A DNA stretch of 38,614 nt from a candidate division WWE3 bacterium (GTDB lineage Bacteria > Patescibacteriota > WWE3 > UBA101185 > UBA10185). Shown piece after piece: positions 4,185 to 38,612 of the stretch. The notes beneath the pieces are model-generated. The model saw nothing but the letters and a program-made list of their open reading frames with translations, did no database searches and was not told the origin of the DNA. Both the position numbers and the translations under genes were made by a program. Where the stretch lies: assembly GCA_016182565.1 (NCBI GenBank), contig JACPGI010000008.1:1-38614 (forward strand). The letters are read 5' to 3'. Within the stretch, counting starts at the first letter, position 1. Each line of letters opens with the position of its first letter.

Positions 4185-4260
4185 TGGTGGGTGCTCCAGG
4201 GATCGAACCTGGGACCATTCGTGTATAAGACGAACGCTCTACCAACTGAGCTAAGCACCC
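4185..4260 (-). tRNA. tRNA with anticodon TAT, nominally tRNA-Ile(UAU)
   Basis: GGGTGCT/AGCACCC acceptor stem, anticodon arm TTCGT-CTTATAC-ACGAA, T loop TTCGATC, encoded CCA, 76 nt. Confidence 0.92.
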
Positions 4261-16388: not shown

Positions 16389-17264
16389 ATGAAAATCCTA
16401 CAAAATACTGTTGAACACCGAGTGAACAAACTTAAAACTTTTTTCCATGTTTTTGGAAAAAGCTCTAGTTCCTTTGACTATTATAAGGATATTGAGAGAG
16501 CTCCATTTAGATTGTCAGTTAAATATTTACTGGCGCTACTATTTATCGCCACAACCGTAACCACTATTAAATCGGCTATACCAATATTTAAAAATACTGA
16601 ACCTGATGTGAGAAATGCTTTGGAGAATATGGAAAAACTATACCCGCAGGATCTTATTTTAACTATTCAAGATGGGAAACTTACAAGTAATAAAACTGAA
16701 GCAGTGATAATAAAAAACCCAAGTTACGGTGGAAAAAGTGAGATTGGAAAAACAGAAAATCTTATTGTTATAGATGAAAATGGTGTAATTGAAGACTTAA
16801 AGTCAAAAAATACCCTCATGGTACTAAATAGTAAAAACCTTTTAGTACAGGATCCAAAGCAAGTTATAGTTTACCCCCTCTCTAAATTCCCCGATGTACA
16901 AATTGACAAAACTTTTGTCCAAAAAACAGCCCAAGACGCGCTGCCAATGATAAAAATCCTGCCTTATATTATCGTAACGCTTCTATTTGGAATAACTTAT
17001 GCTTTTTATGTCGTGAGTAGATTTATTTATCTTTTGGCGGTTGCATGTGTTTTATGGGGATTTACTCTACTTTTGGGCGAGACCTTTTCTTTTGGTAAAT
17101 TATACCAGTTTGGAATCCACGCTATGACTTTGCCTTTGGTACTTGAGGTTATTTTAGATATAGTAGCACCAAGTATTGATATTTCGTTTGCATTTCCTAT
17201 TTTGAACATAATAATTGCAATAGGTGGGATGCTTTATGCGACAAGAAAAGACTCTACCGCGTAG
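16389..17264 (+). CDS. DUF1189-like membrane protein
   Basis: One N-terminal TM, a soluble domain (PQDLILTIQDGKL), then four TMs with SFGKLYQFGIHAMTLP. Confidence 0.7.
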   Translation: MKILQNTVEHRVNKLKTFFHVFGKSSSSFDYYKDIERAPFRLSVKYLLALLFIATTVTTIKSAIPIFKNTEPDVRNALENMEKLYPQDLILTIQDGKLTSNKTEAVIIKNPSYGGKSEIGKTENLIVIDENGVIEDLKSKNTLMVLNSKNLLVQDPKQVIVYPLSKFPDVQIDKTFVQKTAQDALPMIKILPYIIVTLLFGITYAFYVVSRFIYLLAVACVLWGFTLLLGETFSFGKLYQFGIHAMTLPLVLEVILDIVAPSIDISFAFPILNIIIAIGGMLYATRKDSTA

Positions 17265-17441
17265 TTTAGCTAGGTAATCTTTTTGTGTTACTCGGCTTCT
17301 ATTTTAGAAAAGCTAGGAAAGCGTTGAAGAGTAATTGCCTCTGTGATAGCATTCGTCTGGCAACGACACAATATAAGATGGGTTTAAGAGCTAGCTTCAA
17401 ACGGTTTTTAGTAACATAATGGACACTTATTAAATTTATAT

Positions 17442-17516
17442 TCCCCTGTAGCTCAGTGGTAGAGCAGGAAGCTGTTAACTTCAAGGTCCGTGGTTCGAAT
17501 CCACGCGGGGGAGCCA
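17442..17516 (+). tRNA. tRNA-Asn(GTT)
   Basis: TCCCCTG/CGGGGGA acceptor stem, loop CTGTTAA, T loop TTCGAAT, GCCA end. Confidence 0.96.
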
Positions 17517-17637
17517 AATATCTTTTTTCCCTGTCACTGCGACGTTTTCAAACAATTTGTAAAATCTAGAACTTTACCCAAACAATGACCTGTAGTATAA
17601 TAACACAGAAGTCCAAATCAAAAGGAGATTTACTACA

Positions 17638-17967
17638 ATGGCAGCTATACCCGAAGATATCCTAAAGGCTATCAAGACTTGGGATCGAGGTCAGATTGGG
17701 GATCATATCAAAAACCAGCTACAGGATTTTTCCTTCAAAACCTGGGCTAGTTGGAAATTTCATGCGACCGAAGTCTGCACGTTATGCAAAGCAGTGCTAG
17801 CCCGCATAGATGAGCTCCAGATTCAATACCCTGCAGACGAAACACCCATTGGGGAAGTGATTTCATATATGCAAAGAGGCAGAACTTCAATCCAGCCACG
17901 GCCTCACATTGAAAAACTCATAGATATGATCCAAAAATCAGGTTTTACAGGATTGGATCAATTATGA
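17638..17967 (+). CDS. small hypothetical protein, probable paralog of 21021..21389
   Basis: TTTACC-17-TATAAT promoter, AGGAGA SD and a downstream terminator hairpin. Confidence 0.75.
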   Translation: MAAIPEDILKAIKTWDRGQIGDHIKNQLQDFSFKTWASWKFHATEVCTLCKAVLARIDELQIQYPADETPIGEVISYMQRGRTSIQPRPHIEKLIDMIQKSGFTGLDQL

Positions 17968-17970
17968 TTC

Positions 17971-18023
17971 GCAAGGTCTACGTGTATGGATTAGTCCAAC
18001 ATGCAGACCTTGTTTCGTTTTAT
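17971..18023 (+). terminator. long hairpin terminator, repeat copy 1
   Basis: GCAAGGTCTACGTGT...ACATGCAGACCTTGT followed by TTCGTTTT; 47/53 identical to 21395..21447. Confidence 0.75.
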
Positions 18024-18133
18024 ACACATATATTCCCAAACACAAACTTACTCATAAACTCTCTTACTCGAGTATCGTTTCCTCTGGTGAGCTAGTTGCA
18101 ACGTAATATACCCAAAATTGCTATACTATTAAT

Positions 18134-18367
18134 ATGTTTTTTGAAATTATTGGCTGGGTTGGTACACTAGCGATTCTCTTCGCATATTCCTTAGTGTCAT
18201 TTCACAAAATTTCTTCCAGTTCAAAAGAATATCAGTTATTAAATTTATTTGGAGCAATAGGAATTGTTGTTAATTCAGCGATTCATGGAGCTTTGCCTTT
18301 GGTGGGCTTAAATATTGCGTGGTTTTTAATTGCTTTATTTGCGTTATATAAAATAGCGAGGAAATAA
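18134..18367 (+). CDS. small 3-TM membrane protein (CBU_0592 / PQ-loop-like)
   Basis: IIGWVGTLAILFAY...YQLLNLFGA...LNIAW pattern; TATACT 6 nt upstream. Confidence 0.75.
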   Translation: MFFEIIGWVGTLAILFAYSLVSFHKISSSSKEYQLLNLFGAIGIVVNSAIHGALPLVGLNIAWFLIALFALYKIARK

Positions 18368-18377
18368 AACGGGGACT

Positions 18378-19364
18378 CTAAAAACTTAAGAAAGCTAAAA
18401 TATTATTTATAAAAGATCTTTCACTTCTGAGATACTCGCCGGTTTGGGCATCATAGTAAACTGTGGCTGGTATTTCTAATTCAAAAAGGCCTAAGAGTTT
18501 TTCAGATTTGTTAGCCTTCAGACGAAACTCTAATTTAGAAGTATCATCATCTCCAGAGTCGTCGTCAGATTCGATTTCAATTTCTTCAATACTGTCAATG
18601 TCATCAGAAGATTCTGCTTTCTCAAGAATAGCTTGGGGCATCACGCCTAGTTTTACTTCACCATTTTGAGTCTGAACATATATGTTTCCGTCAGCTTTGT
18701 CCAAAAATAGTGGAAAATTATCAAGACCTGTAACTCCCTCACTCTTAATCAAAATCTTGTTATCCTCCACTCTAACCTTTAACTTATTTCCCGATGAATC
18801 TTCAGTTTCAGACTCAATTCCCTCATCACTACCCTCATATTTTTCCTCCTTTAATAGTTTTCCAAATGCATCATAAGTTTTTGTTTCAATTTTTGTCTTA
18901 TCATTCTCTAGTTCCTTTTTTATAATCGAGTATGTGCCATCATTATTTTGAACTCTTTCTTCCGTTTTGTTTTTAGAAGTGTCCTCATCTTCCAACTCAT
19001 CCTCCTCTTCAATCTCATTTAAATCTTCGTCCAAATCGTCCGTATCCTCGTTTTCTTCATCTTCTTCTTTATCCTCATCTTCATCTTCATTTTCGTCCTT
19101 ATTTTCATCCTCATCATCACTATCCCCATCCTTGCTTTCGTCTTCGTCTTCGTCTTCATCTTCACTCTCATCATCATCGCCTAATATATAGCTAAGCTCT
19201 TTAGCATCAGATGCCTTTTGCTCCTTTGTTACTTTGTTGGTCAATTTAGAAGATATAAATGTAGATAAGACAAAAACCGCTACTATTAACAATAAAACAG
19301 GTAAATGAAATACGTAAAAAGTCATACTAGACGTCTTTTGGTATTTATTTTTTGACAAATTCAT
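18378..19364 (-). CDS. membrane-anchored acidic protein with an Asp/Glu low-complexity tract
   Basis: N-terminal TM, ~65-aa D/E tract, C-terminal KLLGLFELEIPATVYYDAQTGEYL (PepSY-like end). Confidence 0.8.
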   Translation of the reverse strand: MNLSKNKYQKTSSMTFYVFHLPVLLLIVAVFVLSTFISSKLTNKVTKEQKASDAKELSYILGDDDESEDEDEDEDESKDGDSDDEDENKDENEDEDEDKEEDEENEDTDDLDEDLNEIEEEDELEDEDTSKNKTEERVQNNDGTYSIIKKELENDKTKIETKTYDAFGKLLKEEKYEGSDEGIESETEDSSGNKLKVRVEDNKILIKSEGVTGLDNFPLFLDKADGNIYVQTQNGEVKLGVMPQAILEKAESSDDIDSIEEIEIESDDDSGDDDTSKLEFRLKANKSEKLLGLFELEIPATVYYDAQTGEYLRSERSFINNILAFLSF

Positions 19365-19448
19365 TGTGTGAATGATACAGCGTTTTGATTAGAAAAAGCA
19401 AGTACCAACATACGTTGCTTTGGGGTAAATCCTATATAATAGTTATTA

Positions 19449-19502
19449 ATGAAACTTTCCGAACAATTATTTAAACTAGCAAAAACTCCCCTATTCGAGT
19501 AA
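19449..19502 (+). other. 17-codon ORF MKLSEQLFKLAKTPLFE containing a thrice-repeated motif
   Basis: TATAAT 8 nt upstream; could be a gene remnant. Confidence 0.3.
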
Positions 19503-19558
19503 CATCTGTTCTAATGAAGCACAAAAGCTAAATATCATTCACTTGTTATAATCCTTAT

Positions 19559-19789
19559 ATGAATGCCCCAATCACGCATCAAATATTTAACAACATACTT
19601 GTGTTTCTTGACCAAAATCCCGATGGATTACGCTGGTCAGCATTACTTAAGAAAATTAATGAAAACCATCCTGATTTTCATCCAAAAACAATCAACGGTT
19701 GTATTTGGAAAATGGTAGAGAAATATCCCAATAAAGTTTATAAACCATCTAAAGGTGTCTTTCGGCTTTTGAAATATAAATCCTTTTAA
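19559..19789 (+). CDS. small hypothetical protein, probable winged-helix
   Basis: TGtTATAAT 6 nt upstream; PDGLRWSALLKKI...KTINGCIW...VYKPSKGVFRL. Confidence 0.7.
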   Translation: MNAPITHQIFNNILVFLDQNPDGLRWSALLKKINENHPDFHPKTINGCIWKMVEKYPNKVYKPSKGVFRLLKYKSF

Positions 19790-19821
19790 TATAACTTCTT
19801 ATTTTTTGATACACTGAAAGT

Positions 19822-20631
19822 GTGCATAAACGAAATCTTATTCTTCTAGTCATTACAATTTTCCTAATCATTGTTGGAGTTGTGTTTTTTCTTTTAAAAA
19901 ATAAAGAAAATGCGCCTCGATTCATTTCAAATAAAAATGCTCTTATCTGGACTTTTAACGGTGAGTCATGGCAAGTAAATGCTACTCCGCCTAGCTGCCC
20001 AAATCCTCTTATCCTACCTGCACCTGTTGATTTAACTCTTGTTAGTGGAATTTTATACCCCGGACAAGAGCGAGGAGGAGATTACAAACCACATGGAGGA
20101 TTCCGATTTGACAACAACAGCAGCAATGAGGTTAACGTGTACACGCCAATGGACGGTAACCTTTTCAAGGCCGCCCGACATCTGGAATACGGAGAGGTCC
20201 AGTATTCTTTGTATTTTATTAATGACTGCGGCATCATGTATAAACTCGACCACATACTGGAACTGACTCCTAAATTTGAAGCAATACTAAACAACATTCC
20301 AATGGGAGCTGAGGGTGATAGTAGAACAACCGAAATACAACCACAGGTTTTTGTAGCCAAAGGAGAGCACATCGCAACAAAAATTGGATTTGAAAATTTC
20401 CCCGGCGGCTATAAAGATAGAAATATTTTTGTTGATTTTGGTTTATATGATCTAAGAAAAATTAACGGAGTTTATTATGATGATGCTTTTCGGGCAAAGC
20501 ATCCAAATATAAACGAGTATGGCACGTATGCTGTTTGCTGGTTTGATTATTTTTCGAACGAAGACAAAGCTATTGTCCGAAACTTACCAGCCGATGGCAA
20601 AGGGGGAAAAACAAGTGATTATTGTAAATAG
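19822..20631 (+). CDS. membrane-anchored M23/LytM-fold protein with degenerate metal motifs
   Basis: N-terminal TM; HGGFRFD, VYTPMDG, YKLDHI, VAKGEHIA; FVDFG where HxH is expected. Confidence 0.6.
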   Translation: MHKRNLILLVITIFLIIVGVVFFLLKNKENAPRFISNKNALIWTFNGESWQVNATPPSCPNPLILPAPVDLTLVSGILYPGQERGGDYKPHGGFRFDNNSSNEVNVYTPMDGNLFKAARHLEYGEVQYSLYFINDCGIMYKLDHILELTPKFEAILNNIPMGAEGDSRTTEIQPQVFVAKGEHIATKIGFENFPGGYKDRNIFVDFGLYDLRKINGVYYDDAFRAKHPNINEYGTYAVCWFDYFSNEDKAIVRNLPADGKGGKTSDYCK

Positions 20632-20669
20632 ATTTAGTCCATACCTATAGACTACAGCACGTAAACACC

Positions 20670-20698
20670 TTGACAAATCAGCCATTTCATCCTATAGT
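20670..20698 (+). promoter_or_regulatory. sigma70 promoter of the candidate ncRNA
   Basis: TTGACA-17 nt-TATAGT. Confidence 0.75.
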
Positions 20699-20704
20699 AT
20701 TTTC

Positions 20705-20880
20705 ATTCCATGTGTAGCGTAGCTGGTAGAGTACTTAACCCGAGAGGATAGGAAAACTCTTAGAAATGCTTTGCATAACTGTGTAATAGCACAACAACGC
20801 TTTGACTTACACCGCAAGTCAATCTAAGGGAGTCTGTGACTTTGATGTCGTAGACGTGATTGAAACACCAGTCTTGGAGC
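20705..20880 (+). ncRNA. candidate structured ncRNA of unknown family
   Basis: No ORF of 60 aa or more; bounded by a consensus promoter and a terminator; at least seven nested helices including 5'-3' end pairing. Confidence 0.6.
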
Positions 20881-20883
20881 AAC

Positions 20884-20931
20884 AAACAGGCATCTGATGG
20901 AACTTCAAAGTTTCTGATAGATGTCTGTTTT
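20884..20931 (+). terminator. long hairpin terminator of the candidate ncRNA
   Basis: AAACAGGCATCTG/TAGATGTCTGTTT (13 bp) with an inner GGAAC/GTTTC stem, ending in TTTT. Confidence 0.7.
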
Positions 20932-21020
20932 GCATTTACAATCCATTCTGAGCTATAGGTTGATATTATTTGGATCTTAAACTAAAATAGCAACACCAAA
21001 TCCATAAAAGGAGATAGAAA

Positions 21021-21389
21021 ATGGGAATAAACCCTAGAGACATCCTTCAAGCGCAGCACAAAAAATCCCCTAAATTTGTGCTAACAGTAGAATTTGCCTT
21101 ACGACTGGCAGAATTTATAAAGAAGATGCATAACTGGGAATCGATTAAGGGCCTAAGGGATAGATCAAATCTGACTTTTGCCGAGTTTTTCAACAAGCTA
21201 TCCCACAGGGAGAAAACAGTTCTCGGTAGGCTTTTCTGGCAACTGCCATTCTTTAAGGCAATGCCAAGTATGGAATCGGTAGGAAATCTTCGAGAACTAA
21301 CGTTTGAAGAGTTAAGATACGAATTTTCCGATACAACCGCTGCATTTCTTGCAATATCTTTTGGGTGCAAGAAATACAAAAAGAAATAA
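21021..21389 (+). CDS. small hypothetical protein with a possible RNAP alpha-CTD-like domain
   Basis: TTGATA-17-TAAAAT promoter (20960-20988), AAGGAGA SD; LSHREKTVL...MESVGNLRELTFEEL. Confidence 0.7.
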   Translation: MGINPRDILQAQHKKSPKFVLTVEFALRLAEFIKKMHNWESIKGLRDRSNLTFAEFFNKLSHREKTVLGRLFWQLPFFKAMPSMESVGNLRELTFEELRYEFSDTTAAFLAISFGCKKYKKK

Positions 21390-21394
21390 CAACA

Positions 21395-21447
21395 GCAAGG
21401 TCTGCATGTATGAACTAATCCAACATGCAGGCCTTGTTTCGTTTTAT
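21395..21447 (+). terminator. long hairpin terminator, repeat copy 2
   Basis: GCAAGGTCTGCATGT...ACATGCAGGCCTTGT followed by TTCGTTTT. Confidence 0.75.
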
Positions 21448-21523
21448 TAGAACAAATCTTCAAATAAACTCCCCTATTCAAACGATATCTACCCGTACTA
21501 TCCTAGTTTGATACAATCTATAT

Positions 21524-21829
21524 ATGTCTAAAAACCCTATAATCAATGCCCTTAGTGCCTCGGCGTACATTATCTTCATTGTCACTGTTATGACCTTTGT
21601 GACTGAACCTCTAAAGAACAAACCGGATACATTTTTTGCTCCAATCACTTTTTTGTCTGTGTTAACCCTTTCTGTGGCCGTGATGGCATATCTGTTTTTT
21701 TACCAACCTATTCTGTTATTTATCGATGAAAAGAAAAAAGAAGCTGTTGAATTATTTGTTAAAACGGTAGGTATTTTTGCAACTATTACCTCAATTATTT
21801 TAATTTTGCTTTTTTTCGGTTTAGTGTAA
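21524..21829 (+). CDS. 3-TM hypothetical membrane protein
   Basis: Three hydrophobic segments; TGaTACAAT 6 nt upstream. Confidence 0.78.
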   Translation: MSKNPIINALSASAYIIFIVTVMTFVTEPLKNKPDTFFAPITFLSVLTLSVAVMAYLFFYQPILLFIDEKKKEAVELFVKTVGIFATITSIILILLFFGLV

Positions 21830-21855
21830 GGTAACTTTTGTTATAATCAACTGGT

Positions 21856-22038
21856 ATGAAAACAATATTGGTAGACGCAGTAGGAACATTTGTTATAAAA
21901 GGTTTGGGTATATATAAACCCCTATATGAACTCTTGGAGCAATATTTAAACAAAAAATTAGGAGTGAGTAACAACCTATACTTAATGTTGATGTGTTTTG
22001 TTCAGGTTAAGAATACTAAACCAATCCACAACAACTAA
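21856..22038 (+). pseudogene. truncated HAD-family hydrolase fragment
   Basis: Begins MKTILVDAVGTF (HAD motif I-like) but is only 60 aa, with no motifs II-IV. Confidence 0.5.
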
Positions 22039-22140
22039 AGATCGGCTAGTATCCTATAGGTTGCTTAGGTATGAGCTTTCCACTATAATGCAAAAAATCT
22101 AATTAAATGGCCAAAAATCAAATAATGGAGACGAGAAACT

Positions 22141-22341
22141 ATGAAGATCTCACCTGGTTTTACAAAAGTAGCAGTACCAGACGGCGCGCACTTCTTCGCG
22201 CGAGCTGTAAGATGTGACTGCTGTCACACTTTGCTAGAAGGAACAGGGGGAACTCCGCAGGACGCCGAGACAAGAACCCTCGAGCTTGCAAAGAACCATA
22301 TCTGCCCAATCAAGCCCGAAGAGAATCTTGAGAAACCTTAA
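22141..22341 (+). CDS. small hypothetical protein with a possible Zn site (CDCCH...HIC)
   Basis: TTGCTT-17-TATAAT promoter (22061-22089) and GGAGA SD. Confidence 0.65.
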   Translation: MKISPGFTKVAVPDGAHFFARAVRCDCCHTLLEGTGGTPQDAETRTLELAKNHICPIKPEENLEKP

Positions 22342-22413
22342 GAAATAGCTGGGGGTTAATCTTGAACCCACAGTACATCAAAAAGAAATACCAAATCGCA
22401 TTAGGAGAACGCT

Positions 22414-22872
22414 ATGAAAACAACGCATTTTCAATACCCCTGGAATGGGCCTGTCTACAGTTTTGAAGCCCGGGATGCACAACTACTGGATGGTGTAAAT
22501 GTCATCCTGCCTGATGGCAACACTGAAGTCAGAGTAACGGTACTCGAAGATCATTTCCCTACAGTCGGGAAGCCGGTTGAACTTCAGATAAACCAACCCC
22601 ACGCAAAGGTCGTAATTCCTGAAAATGGGTTTCAAGTGAAATTCGATGGGAAATGGAAATCCATTGCAAAACTCGTCAATGCGGCTGCGGCGGTAAATAC
22701 TCTCTTTTCAGTCATCCTCACGCATGAAGAGTATTACCGGCTTAACCTTGGAGGGCTTGACCAAATCAAGTACCTATTCTCCGAGCGCGCCTTTTCACTT
22801 CTGTATCTTTACGACGATTACCGTACAGATGGGCCTTCGCTCGAACTGTTCAGAACCGGAACCTGTCGCTAA
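22414..22872 (+). CDS. hypothetical protein
   Basis: 152-aa ORF with AGGAGA SD and a downstream hairpin. Confidence 0.7.
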   Translation: MKTTHFQYPWNGPVYSFEARDAQLLDGVNVILPDGNTEVRVTVLEDHFPTVGKPVELQINQPHAKVVIPENGFQVKFDGKWKSIAKLVNAAAAVNTLFSVILTHEEYYRLNLGGLDQIKYLFSERAFSLLYLYDDYRTDGPSLELFRTGTCR

Positions 22873-22894
22873 GATTGGCATTCTAGGACATTCT

Positions 22895-22929
22895 AAAACT
22901 CTGTTTGGTACCAAGCTAAACAGAGTTTT
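22895..22929. terminator. bidirectional terminator between convergent genes
   Basis: AAAACTCTGTTTGG-N7-CTAAACAGAGTTTT. Confidence 0.7.
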
Positions 22930-22970
22930 GACTACCAAACATTTAATATCTTAGAAACACCTAATTTAGA

Positions 22971-23912
22971 TCATTTTCTGAAAAGCCACATCAAAATCCC
23001 TTTTTGAATATGAAGCCTATTTTCTGCCTGATCAAAAATCAAAGAATACTTATGTTCTATAGCATCTCTTGTAATTTCATACCCAACATGACAAGGCATA
23101 CAATGCATAATTTTTGCGCTAGGACAGTATTTATTAACTAACTGTGCATTTAGTTGATACGGGGCAAAAACTTTCTTTCTTTGTTCATACTCTTTTTTAA
23201 ACTCACTTTTGATTTTTCCATTTTCAAAAAACTCCATATTCATCCAAGTATCAGTATGCACAAATTGAGCATCTTTTAACCCAGACTTAACATCTTTTGT
23301 ATAAGTCACCATTCCGGTTTTATCTGCAAGTTTATTTAGTTCCACATCAACACTAGATGAGTCTAGTTCAGGTGAAATAATAGTAATATTTATCCCAAGC
23401 AGCGCACATGCAAGTTTTAAAGTATTTGAGACATTGTTTTCTATCCCAAGCCATGCAACCTTTTTTATTTTTTTAATCCCTCCGGCACTTTCTGCCATGG
23501 TCAAAATATCCCCTAGTGCTTGGCAGGGGTGATATTTTTCACTACAAGCATCAATCACAGGGATACTATTCATACTTGCTGCCTTTTCCACATCACTTGC
23601 TTTTAAAGCCCTAAACATAAGAGCGCAACCAAAGCGCATAATTGCCTTTATCTCATCACCAAAATCAGTAAGACTAAACTGAGTTGTTCTACTATCAAGA
23701 AAGATTGCATGCCCGCCAAGCTCAGTCATTGCAGATTCAAACGAAAGTCTAGTTCGAGTAGATGTTTTTTGGAAAAGCATTATAAGTGTTTTATTTTTTA
23801 GGTAGTTTGTAAAAACCCCTCTTTTCCTTTTCTTTTTGATATCTGAGGCCAAGCGCAATATTGTAAGTAAATCCTTGGCAGTATTTTCTTTGAGCGAAAT
23901 TAAGTGTTTCAT
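22971..23912 (-). CDS. argF: ornithine carbamoyltransferase-family enzyme (ArgF/ArcB-like)
   Basis: STRTRLSFE, HPCQALGD, HCMP and QAENRLH motifs. DTWMNME replaces the usual DxxxSMG. Confidence 0.85.
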   Translation of the reverse strand: MKHLISLKENTAKDLLTILRLASDIKKKRKRGVFTNYLKNKTLIMLFQKTSTRTRLSFESAMTELGGHAIFLDSRTTQFSLTDFGDEIKAIMRFGCALMFRALKASDVEKAASMNSIPVIDACSEKYHPCQALGDILTMAESAGGIKKIKKVAWLGIENNVSNTLKLACALLGINITIISPELDSSSVDVELNKLADKTGMVTYTKDVKSGLKDAQFVHTDTWMNMEFFENGKIKSEFKKEYEQRKKVFAPYQLNAQLVNKYCPSAKIMHCMPCHVGYEITRDAIEHKYSLIFDQAENRLHIQKGILMWLFRK

Positions 23913-37904: not shown

Positions 37905-38612
37905 CTAAACCGACCTACTCTCCAGTAAAACAACAAGTTCAACATGTGGCGTATGGGAAAACATATCAATGGCAATTGCGCGTGTAATCTCATATTTTGG
38001 CACAAACCGGGAAAATTCTTTCACAAAACTTTTATAATTGCAGGAGACATAGACTATTTTTCTAGGGTTTTTGATAAGCAGGTTTGATAACACTGTGGGG
38101 TGAAGTCCGGCTCGGGGCGGGTCTATTAATATGTATTCCGCTTCAAAATCTTGTAGGTCTAGCTCTTCTGATTTTTTTGTTATGAACTTTACTGCAACAT
38201 TATTTTGAATAGCATTAAAATTTGCGTCATTAACTGCCTCTTCCACTACCTCTACTCCAATTACATTTGATGAGGATTTCGCCAAAGGAATAGTAAAAAA
38301 ACCACTACCGCAATATAGATCTAGAATCTTTTTTTCTTTGATGTCCCCTAAAAACTCTAAAACAGTAGATTGGAGCTTTTCTCCTGCATATGAGTTCGTT
38401 TGAAAAAACGAGTTGGAAGTGATTTTATAAGAATAACCATTAATAGTTTCGGTGATATAACCACTACCAACAAGCACCGAATGCTCTTCACCAAAAGACA
38501 CGTCTGACAAATTATTATTAATCGACCAAACAATTGTCAAACCTTGTACTTTTGGCATCAAGTAGGCACAAAATGCTAGTAGTTTCTGTTTTTCTTCATC
38601 AGAGTTTTTTAA
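37905..38612 (-). CDS. rlmD: 23S rRNA (uracil-C5)-methyltransferase RlmD/RumA family (5' end outside the window)
   Basis: SFFQTN, LDLYCGSG, DPPRAG, YVSCN and DMFSHTPHVE motifs. The frame stays open to the window end. Confidence 0.9.
   Translation of the reverse strand, partial: LKNSDEEKQKLLAFCAYLMPKVQGLTIVWSINNNLSDVSFGEEHSVLVGSGYITETINGYSYKITSNSFFQTNSYAGEKLQSTVLEFLGDIKEKKILDLYCGSGFFTIPLAKSSSNVIGVEVVEEAVNDANFNAIQNNVAVKFITKKSEELDLQDFEAEYILIDPPRAGLHPTVLSNLLIKNPRKIVYVSCNYKSFVKEFSRFVPKYEITRAIAIDMFSHTPHVELVVLLESRSV

Follow-up and report, generated by a model that had tools for sequence, protein, structure and literature searches.

Background

The described systems closest to the locus analysed here are species-specific intergenic small-RNA (sRNA) genes, in which a sigma-70 promoter and an intrinsic terminator enclose a transcript of 50-300 nt. 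The candidate unit is like them in promoter, size and terminator, and also in being devoid of an open reading frame (ORF), lying between genes and not being conserved; it differs in that its complementarity to possible targets is at chance level and in that its transcript is, here, a predicted one. Many base-pairing small RNAs fold no better than shuffled sequences, so that a chance-level fold does not exclude a functional RNA. YrlA RNAs are bacterial Y-RNA-like tRNA mimics; the candidate resembles them in being non-coding and in having a D-loop-like element, but here a Ro/TROVE gene, an Rfam match and a T-loop are all missing. With tRNA genes, fragments and pseudogenes it shares a 22-nt D-arm-like stretch behind the -10 box, whereas a cloverleaf, a T-arm, an acceptor stem in register and a match to the tRNA family (RF00005) are absent. 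6S RNA (RF00013) is approached in length (about 180 nt) and in paired ends, but not in model match, in the rod with a central bubble, or in conservation. A full-text search of the literature found no small-RNA literature for CPR / Patescibacteria.

A sequence-only reading had described the stretch as an independently transcribed, multi-helix non-coding RNA, possibly a ribozyme or a divergent 6S RNA. Analysis upheld the promoter and terminator as well as the lack of a long ORF and of an Rfam match, but not the fold, the ribozyme or the 6S assignment. The reading that we tentatively prefer is a lineage-specific non-coding unit of about 225 nt. It is probably transcribed, might be what is left of a tRNA gene, and has a terminator that may also serve the upstream gene.

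The locus and its variable surroundings

The host is a groundwater bacterium with a genome of 804 kb. The candidate RNA is situated in the 389-nt intergenic gap (20632-21020) that separates a 269-aa ORF from a 122-aa ORF; positions refer to the window, i.e., the whole stretch of 38,614 nt that was analysed. The main features are:

19822-20631, plus strand: 269-aa ORF, with its stop at 20631
20670-20698, plus strand: sigma-70-type promoter-like site TTGACA-17-TATAGT, matching 11/12 consensus positions
20705-20880, plus strand: non-coding core of 176 nt, with a predicted multibranch fold at chance level
20887-20931, plus strand: intrinsic-terminator-like hairpin of 10 + 6 pairs followed by UUUU, assessed by folding energy
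20960-20988, plus strand: promoter-like site TTGATA-17-TAAAAT of the 122-aa ORF, 10/12
21021-21389, plus strand: 122-aa ORF, the downstream gene
21395-21447, plus strand: D3 terminator hairpin of 53 nt behind the 122-aa ORF, 89% identical to 17971-18023

The 269-aa ORF has no Pfam, PHROG or NCBIfam match. Neither strand of 20640-21020 holds an ORF longer than 43 aa, which bears out the earlier statement that no ORF of 60 aa or more follows the promoter. A type I toxin was considered and rejected, as the minus-strand ORFs of 38-41 aa are, by our own reading, not hydrophobic-looking and have no ribosome-binding site (RBS).

The candidate is part of a 5-kb variable island of orphan ORFs (17517-22900), which is bordered by tRNA-Asn on one side and by an ornithine/aspartate carbamoyltransferase gene on the other. 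In the related genome G030, DUF1189, tRNA-Asn and the 269-aa gene, the latter convergent on the tRNA, are all adjacent. Relative to that arrangement (locus L035), the host carries 2.3 kb of inserted orphan ORFs and an inverted 269-aa gene within positions 16389-20631; the difference in gene order indicates that the locus was rearranged in the host lineage.

Other parts of the island have peculiarities of their own. The 328-aa ORF at 18378-19364 (minus strand) encodes a membrane segment at its N-terminus and a long low-complexity region rich in Asp and Glu, the latter made of repeats with a 12-nt period. The segment 22000-22900 has a locally high G+C content (0.43-0.475 in windows across 22100-22899, genome about 0.36) and contains two orphan ORFs (66 and 152 aa), neither of which matches any family.

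Promoter and terminator

The promoter proposed from the sequence was recovered at 20670-20698. In the whole genome, 31 sites match at least 11/12 consensus positions, five of them, including that at 20670, on the contig; five block shuffles of the genome contained 41-53 such sites, so there is no enrichment. Since the genomic count is below that of the shuffles, it proves nothing by itself, and the promoter could be due to chance. Three of the four other sites on the contig (2783, 3171 and 10623) are located at or just before tRNA-Met or an ORF start, and the fourth (38540) falls inside the first bases of a listed ORF (37905-38561); this proximity to gene starts suggests that the consensus is used by the organism. 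We consider the promoter at 20670-20698 probably real and, from spacing, infer a transcript start near A20705, about 7 bases past TATAGT.

The long terminator of the earlier reading was likewise confirmed. The hairpin at 20887-20927 has a folding energy of -20.6 kcal/mol (z -4.38), a value that none of 200 shuffles attained, and is followed by UUUU at 20928-20931. A simple terminator scan missed the hairpin, presumably on account of the bulges within it. In style it matches the D3 hairpins that follow the neighbouring ORFs.

As the 269-aa gene has no other terminator ahead of 20887, the stretch might not be an independent RNA at all, but the 3' UTR and terminator of that gene, preceded by a chance promoter. 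Such an explanation agrees with the lack of genome-wide enrichment of promoter-quality sites over shuffles and with the chance-level fold of the core. However, a 3' UTR of 250 nt would be long for so compact a genome, the same gene is followed in relatives by no more than about 60 nt, and the 11/12 site lies in the sole long intergenic gap here and is aimed at the terminator. We regard a mere 3' UTR as unlikely.

The downstream gene and paired cassettes

The 122-aa gene has, as had been proposed, a promoter-like site of its own behind the terminator. None of 100 relatives and none of the viral contigs contained the gene, and a search of 5.8 billion proteins (lengths 67-214 aa) retrieved only the 122-aa protein itself. 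A metagenome match with 32% identity lay opposite a long ORF on the other strand and was dismissed as spurious. In a protein atlas, the nearest neighbours of the 122-aa protein are phage hypothetical clusters (scores 0.96 and 0.95), which at low recognition serves as a lead only.

A second cassette of this kind begins at 17638 with a 109-aa ORF. The two cassettes have a common 5' UTR (CCAAATC..AAAAGGAGAT; 17600-17637 and 20985-21020), and behind each ORF a D3 hairpin, at 17971-18023 in the case of the 109-aa ORF, is followed on its 3' side by a 25-nt D4 element. The 3' regions containing D3 and D4 extend over 17971-18080 and 21395-21490. The 109-aa and 122-aa proteins have no detectable relation (E 14); in this pair, which is unique to the host genome, conservation is thus higher in the non-coding flanks than in the ORF bodies. 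D3 is absent elsewhere in the genome and from the 133 other genomes of the class.

The succession of a promoter, about 180 nt, a terminator, 90 nt and an RBS would also suit a riboswitch or attenuator, a cis-acting leader by which read-through into the 122-aa gene is controlled. An anti-terminator could form between UUCCAU (20706-20711) and AUGGAA (20897-20902), the latter in the 5' arm of the terminator, and a 13-codon ORF begins at 20710. The anti-terminator fold is, however, 16.8 kcal/mol worse (-53.5 versus -70.3 kcal/mol), there is no Rfam riboswitch match, the gene is an orphan, and its own promoter behind the terminator is common to the paralogous cassette. A role of the unit as a leader appears improbable.

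Searches for homologues

Homologues in CPR genomes were sought by BLAST, by a single-sequence covariance model of the candidate RNA (R1) and by synteny; each of these searches was negative. Apart from the host, the collections covered include no genome of its genus. Among 60 relatives, the best non-self BLAST match (E 0.0018) covered 26 nt of the terminator. BLAST against all 134 genomes of the class (133 others) produced six non-self matches of 18-30 nt with E values of 0.001-0.009, which we ascribe to chance as they are no more than the number of genomes predicts, and 400 genomes of the phylum gave none at E ≤ 0.001. With R1, a single non-self match (E 0.5) was obtained in 149 relatives and none in the genomes of L048-L050; with filters switched off, the best match in eight syntenic loci had an E value of 0.16. 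Phage collections contained two 41-nt matches at E 0.08-0.9 and plasmid collections none, and two exact patterns of the RNA did not occur in viral contigs. In three DNA sequencing runs, no variants were observed over the RNA stretch.

Relatives of the upstream 269-aa gene, with 50-77% identity, are present in 4 of 100 related genomes and at four loci of a wider genome-contig collection. In the closest neighbours, L049 and L048, the protein is 77% and 74% identical, respectively, at a DNA identity of about 78%, and DNA homology ends exactly at the stop codon of the gene. In L049 the next gene follows after about 60 nt. No such RNA stretch is found behind the 269-aa gene in G080, G071, G030 and L049; in G008 and L048 the contig ends behind the gene. 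With no homologue in the genomes searched, a structured RNA has no comparative support.

Comparison with known RNA families

A scan of the whole window against Rfam at gathering level detected four tRNAs only, and at E ≤ 1 the region 17400-23000 contained only tRNA-Asn. When the limit was relaxed to E ≤ 10, six chance-level matches appeared in 20600-21020, the best of them to snR62 on the minus strand (E 0.26). The earlier statement that no RNA family could be recognised is thus consistent with an Rfam scan without meaningful match, 6S models included. tmRNA is encoded elsewhere in the genome (C10, 143.8 bits). The RNase P RNA at G000:C8:67807-68161 (minus strand) scores 73.3 bits, compared with the 100-bit gathering score of RF00010, and is a divergent form.

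A very divergent 6S RNA is conceivable from the size, from the pairing of the 5' and 3' ends and from the lack of any 6S RNA match in the remainder of the genome. RF00013, however, had no match at E ≤ 10 in either the region or the genome, and the rod typical of 6S RNA was not recovered: the best duplex of the two halves amounts to -31.6 kcal/mol, as against -32.6 ± 4.5 kcal/mol for 100 shuffles. Moreover, a housekeeping 6S RNA should be conserved, but the stretch is absent in all relatives searched. We consider an identity as 6S RNA extremely improbable.

The same grade applies to a catalytic RNA, self-cleaving or other, and to an SRP RNA. In favour of a ribozyme there are only the GAGA tetraloop and the many helices that could form; there is no family match, and the fold is not above chance. 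An SRP RNA came into consideration because none is detectable elsewhere in the genome. The SRP RNA models RF00169 and RF01854 matched neither the region nor the genome, in line with the earlier note of no SRP signatures, and RF00169 was found in 0 of 41 genomes of the class. The genome is devoid of an Ffh M domain (PF02978), its matches to the SRP54-type GTPase domain (PF00448) are P-loop-level only (≤24 bits), and the DTAGR motif is absent from all six frames. Since the genome has no Ffh, the SRP RNA reading is excluded.

Viewed across the whole genome and its relatives, the SRP pathway (RNA, Ffh M domain, GTPase and DTAGR) is undetectable, PF00448 having no real match in 41 class or 121 phylum genomes. 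According to PMC8080830, many CPR bacteria lack two SRP subunits, so the missing SRP pathway appears to be known already.

Predicted fold of the core

The core at 20705-20880 folds with -46.8 kcal/mol, whereas dinucleotide shuffles reach -41.0 ± 4.1 kcal/mol; at z -1.42, 16 of 200 shuffles were as good. A second script gave z -1.44 for the plus and -1.42 for the minus strand. For comparison, 70 random genomic windows of 176 nt had a mean z of 0.01 with a standard deviation of 1.2, three of them at or below -3. If the terminator is included, the 236-nt stretch 20700-20935 attains z -3.32 on the plus strand (-1.12 on the minus strand), but this value is carried by the terminator and not by the core.

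All helices proposed in the sequence-only reading do consist of standard or G-U pairs at the coordinates given for them. The multi-helix fold as such nevertheless found no backing: the core is no better than its shuffles, and there are no homologues that could lend comparative support, so that the claim of a new structured non-coding RNA or ribozyme is left without statistical or comparative support. At -42.1 kcal/mol, the nested model falls 4.7 kcal/mol short of the minimum-free-energy fold, and its helices P2, P3 and ATGC/GCAT have an ensemble probability of 0.0, as does the proposed pseudoknot AGCGT/ACGCT. Stable both in that model and in the minimum-free-energy fold are the end pairing P1 (pair probabilities 0.55-0.99), a 5-bp hairpin at 20780-20793 and two longer hairpins:

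20802-20822, plus strand: hairpin UUGACUU/AAGUCAA, 7 pairs, pair probabilities 0.62-1.0
20832-20855, plus strand: most stable hairpin of the core, GUCUGUGAC/GUCGUAGAC, 9 pairs, loop UUUGAU, pair probabilities 0.89-1.0

In the 3' part of the core, 20858-20875 matches the -35 region upstream of tRNA-Asp(GUC) on C9 in 16 of 18 positions, which by a rough estimate is borderline chance.

A tRNA D-arm-like stretch

The earlier reading had seen no tRNA signatures in the core. This has to be amended, as its 5' part contains a segment resembling a D-arm:

20715-20736, plus strand: tRNA D-arm-like stretch UAGCGUAGCUGGUAGAGUACU (corresponding to tRNA positions 8-29), matching tRNA-Ala(CGC)

The stretch is identical to tRNA-Ala(CGC) of the host in 19 of 22 positions without gaps, including the canonical D-loop AGCUGGUA, and the D-arm residues A14, G18, G19 and A21 are present. 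Its D-stem is weak, with one Watson-Crick pair, two G-U pairs and one G-A mismatch by our own reading. Allowing for up to two mismatches, the window contains the pattern TAGCNNAGNTGGTAGAG at two places, 20715-20736 and tRNA-Ile, versus 0.10 expected. An nhmmer profile built from the 38 class-I tRNAs of the host genome assigned 7.3 bits to the stretch, corresponding to E 0.0019 for the 421-nt region and 3.7 genome-wide, and 6 of 400 core shuffles and 1 of 600 windows drawn at random from the genome attained its best score against 44 tRNAs. The likeness, noticed post hoc, is moderately supported and suggestive.

The remainder of a tRNA was not found. ARAGORN, run with five option sets including introns and lowered thresholds, reported 0 tRNA genes in the region, no GGTTCGAATCC-like T-arm site is present near it, and the 3' part of the core is unlike the 3' half of any tRNA (z below 2). 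The 7 nt ahead of the D-arm stretch (CCAUGUG) have no complementary 3' strand, and in the predicted fold the stretch itself is buried in a long imperfect hairpin.

The would-be tRNA position 1 is 9 nt away from the -10 box. In the nine host tRNAs with a promoter match of at least 10/12 this distance is 10-41 nt, and 10-23 nt in seven of the nine, so that the spacing observed here is just under the latter range. The succession of a strong promoter and, 9 bases on, a stretch resembling tRNA positions 1-29 suggests the remnant of a tRNA gene. A duplication of tRNA-Asn was rejected as its source, because the D-arm stretch is nearer to tRNA-Ala than to tRNA-Asn and the 109- and 122-aa proteins are not detectably related.

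With regard to the tRNA complement of the host, ARAGORN listed 44 tRNAs; by our own reading, tRNA-Ser(UGA) is the sole one missing, even when introns are allowed. It may sit in an assembly gap. A partial tRNA-like match was seen at the very end of C7 (C7:42516-42587). Besides tRNA-Ile(GAU), a tRNA-Ile(UAU) is encoded at 4185-4260 (minus strand).

Possible function as a small RNA

A promoter, a terminator and the absence of an ORF are also what would be expected of a lineage-specific trans-acting sRNA, which might base-pair with mRNAs, bind a protein or act as a tRNA-mimicking decoy. At this locus, the hallmark of an sRNA gene, an own promoter plus an intrinsic terminator without an ORF, consists of consensus matches only. 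The D-loop-like AGCUGGUA with its two G's speaks for such an sRNA, and the UUUGA loop of the 9-bp hairpin could conceivably be a T-loop-like partner. As to base-pairing, 20767-20779 is perfectly complementary over 13 bases to 17781-17793 inside the 109-aa ORF, but the 5.8 kb that contain both yielded 17 inverted pairs in total, this 13-mer among them. When 640 start regions with an RBS were compared, complementarity was no greater than that of shuffles (real versus shuffled: 1 vs 0.35 for 12-mers, 2 vs 1.15 for 11-mers and 20 vs 21 for 9-mers). Further arguments against an sRNA are that the stretch is not conserved at all, that the D-arm stretch is buried in the predicted fold and that the genome has no Ro/TROVE protein (PF05731). 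We judge a dedicated trans-acting sRNA to be rather unlikely.

Proposed origin and significance

Our best reading is that the unit does not belong to a conserved structured-RNA family, and we return to the tentative interpretation as a lineage-specific non-coding unit with a possible tRNA-gene ancestry. RNA polymerase would start near A20705, transcribe about 180 non-coding bases and stop at 20887-20931, releasing an RNA of about 225 nt; these steps are deduced from consensus matches. The unit may be the remnant of a tRNA gene of which the promoter and the 5' part were kept, while the 3' two-thirds of the tRNA would have been replaced during the rearrangements that built the variable 5-kb island. 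The terminator at 20887-20931 would also end transcription coming from the 269-aa gene and would thereby insulate the 122-aa gene with its own promoter. We expect the transcript itself to be a neutral remnant, or else a small RNA of very recent origin that lacks a specific tertiary fold.

A more far-reaching variant, which we hold to be very improbable, is a newborn regulatory RNA exapted from a tRNA gene, with the tRNA promoter and the D-loop kept and a loop-paired elbow that acts as a decoy. Were it true, the D-loop and the UUUGA loop of the 9-bp hairpin would form a tRNA-like elbow, and the RNA would be a decoy for a tRNA-binding factor in a phage-like, fast-evolving gene cassette.

For the lineage-specific unit that we tentatively prefer, the significance is small as it stands. 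The useful results are negative ones, namely a fold at chance level and the exclusion, or lack of support, of 6S and SRP RNA. If the unit is transcribed, it would add one more strain-specific small RNA candidate in CPR / Patescibacteria, and its possible descent from a tRNA gene would be a small curiosity bearing on how orphan transcripts arise.
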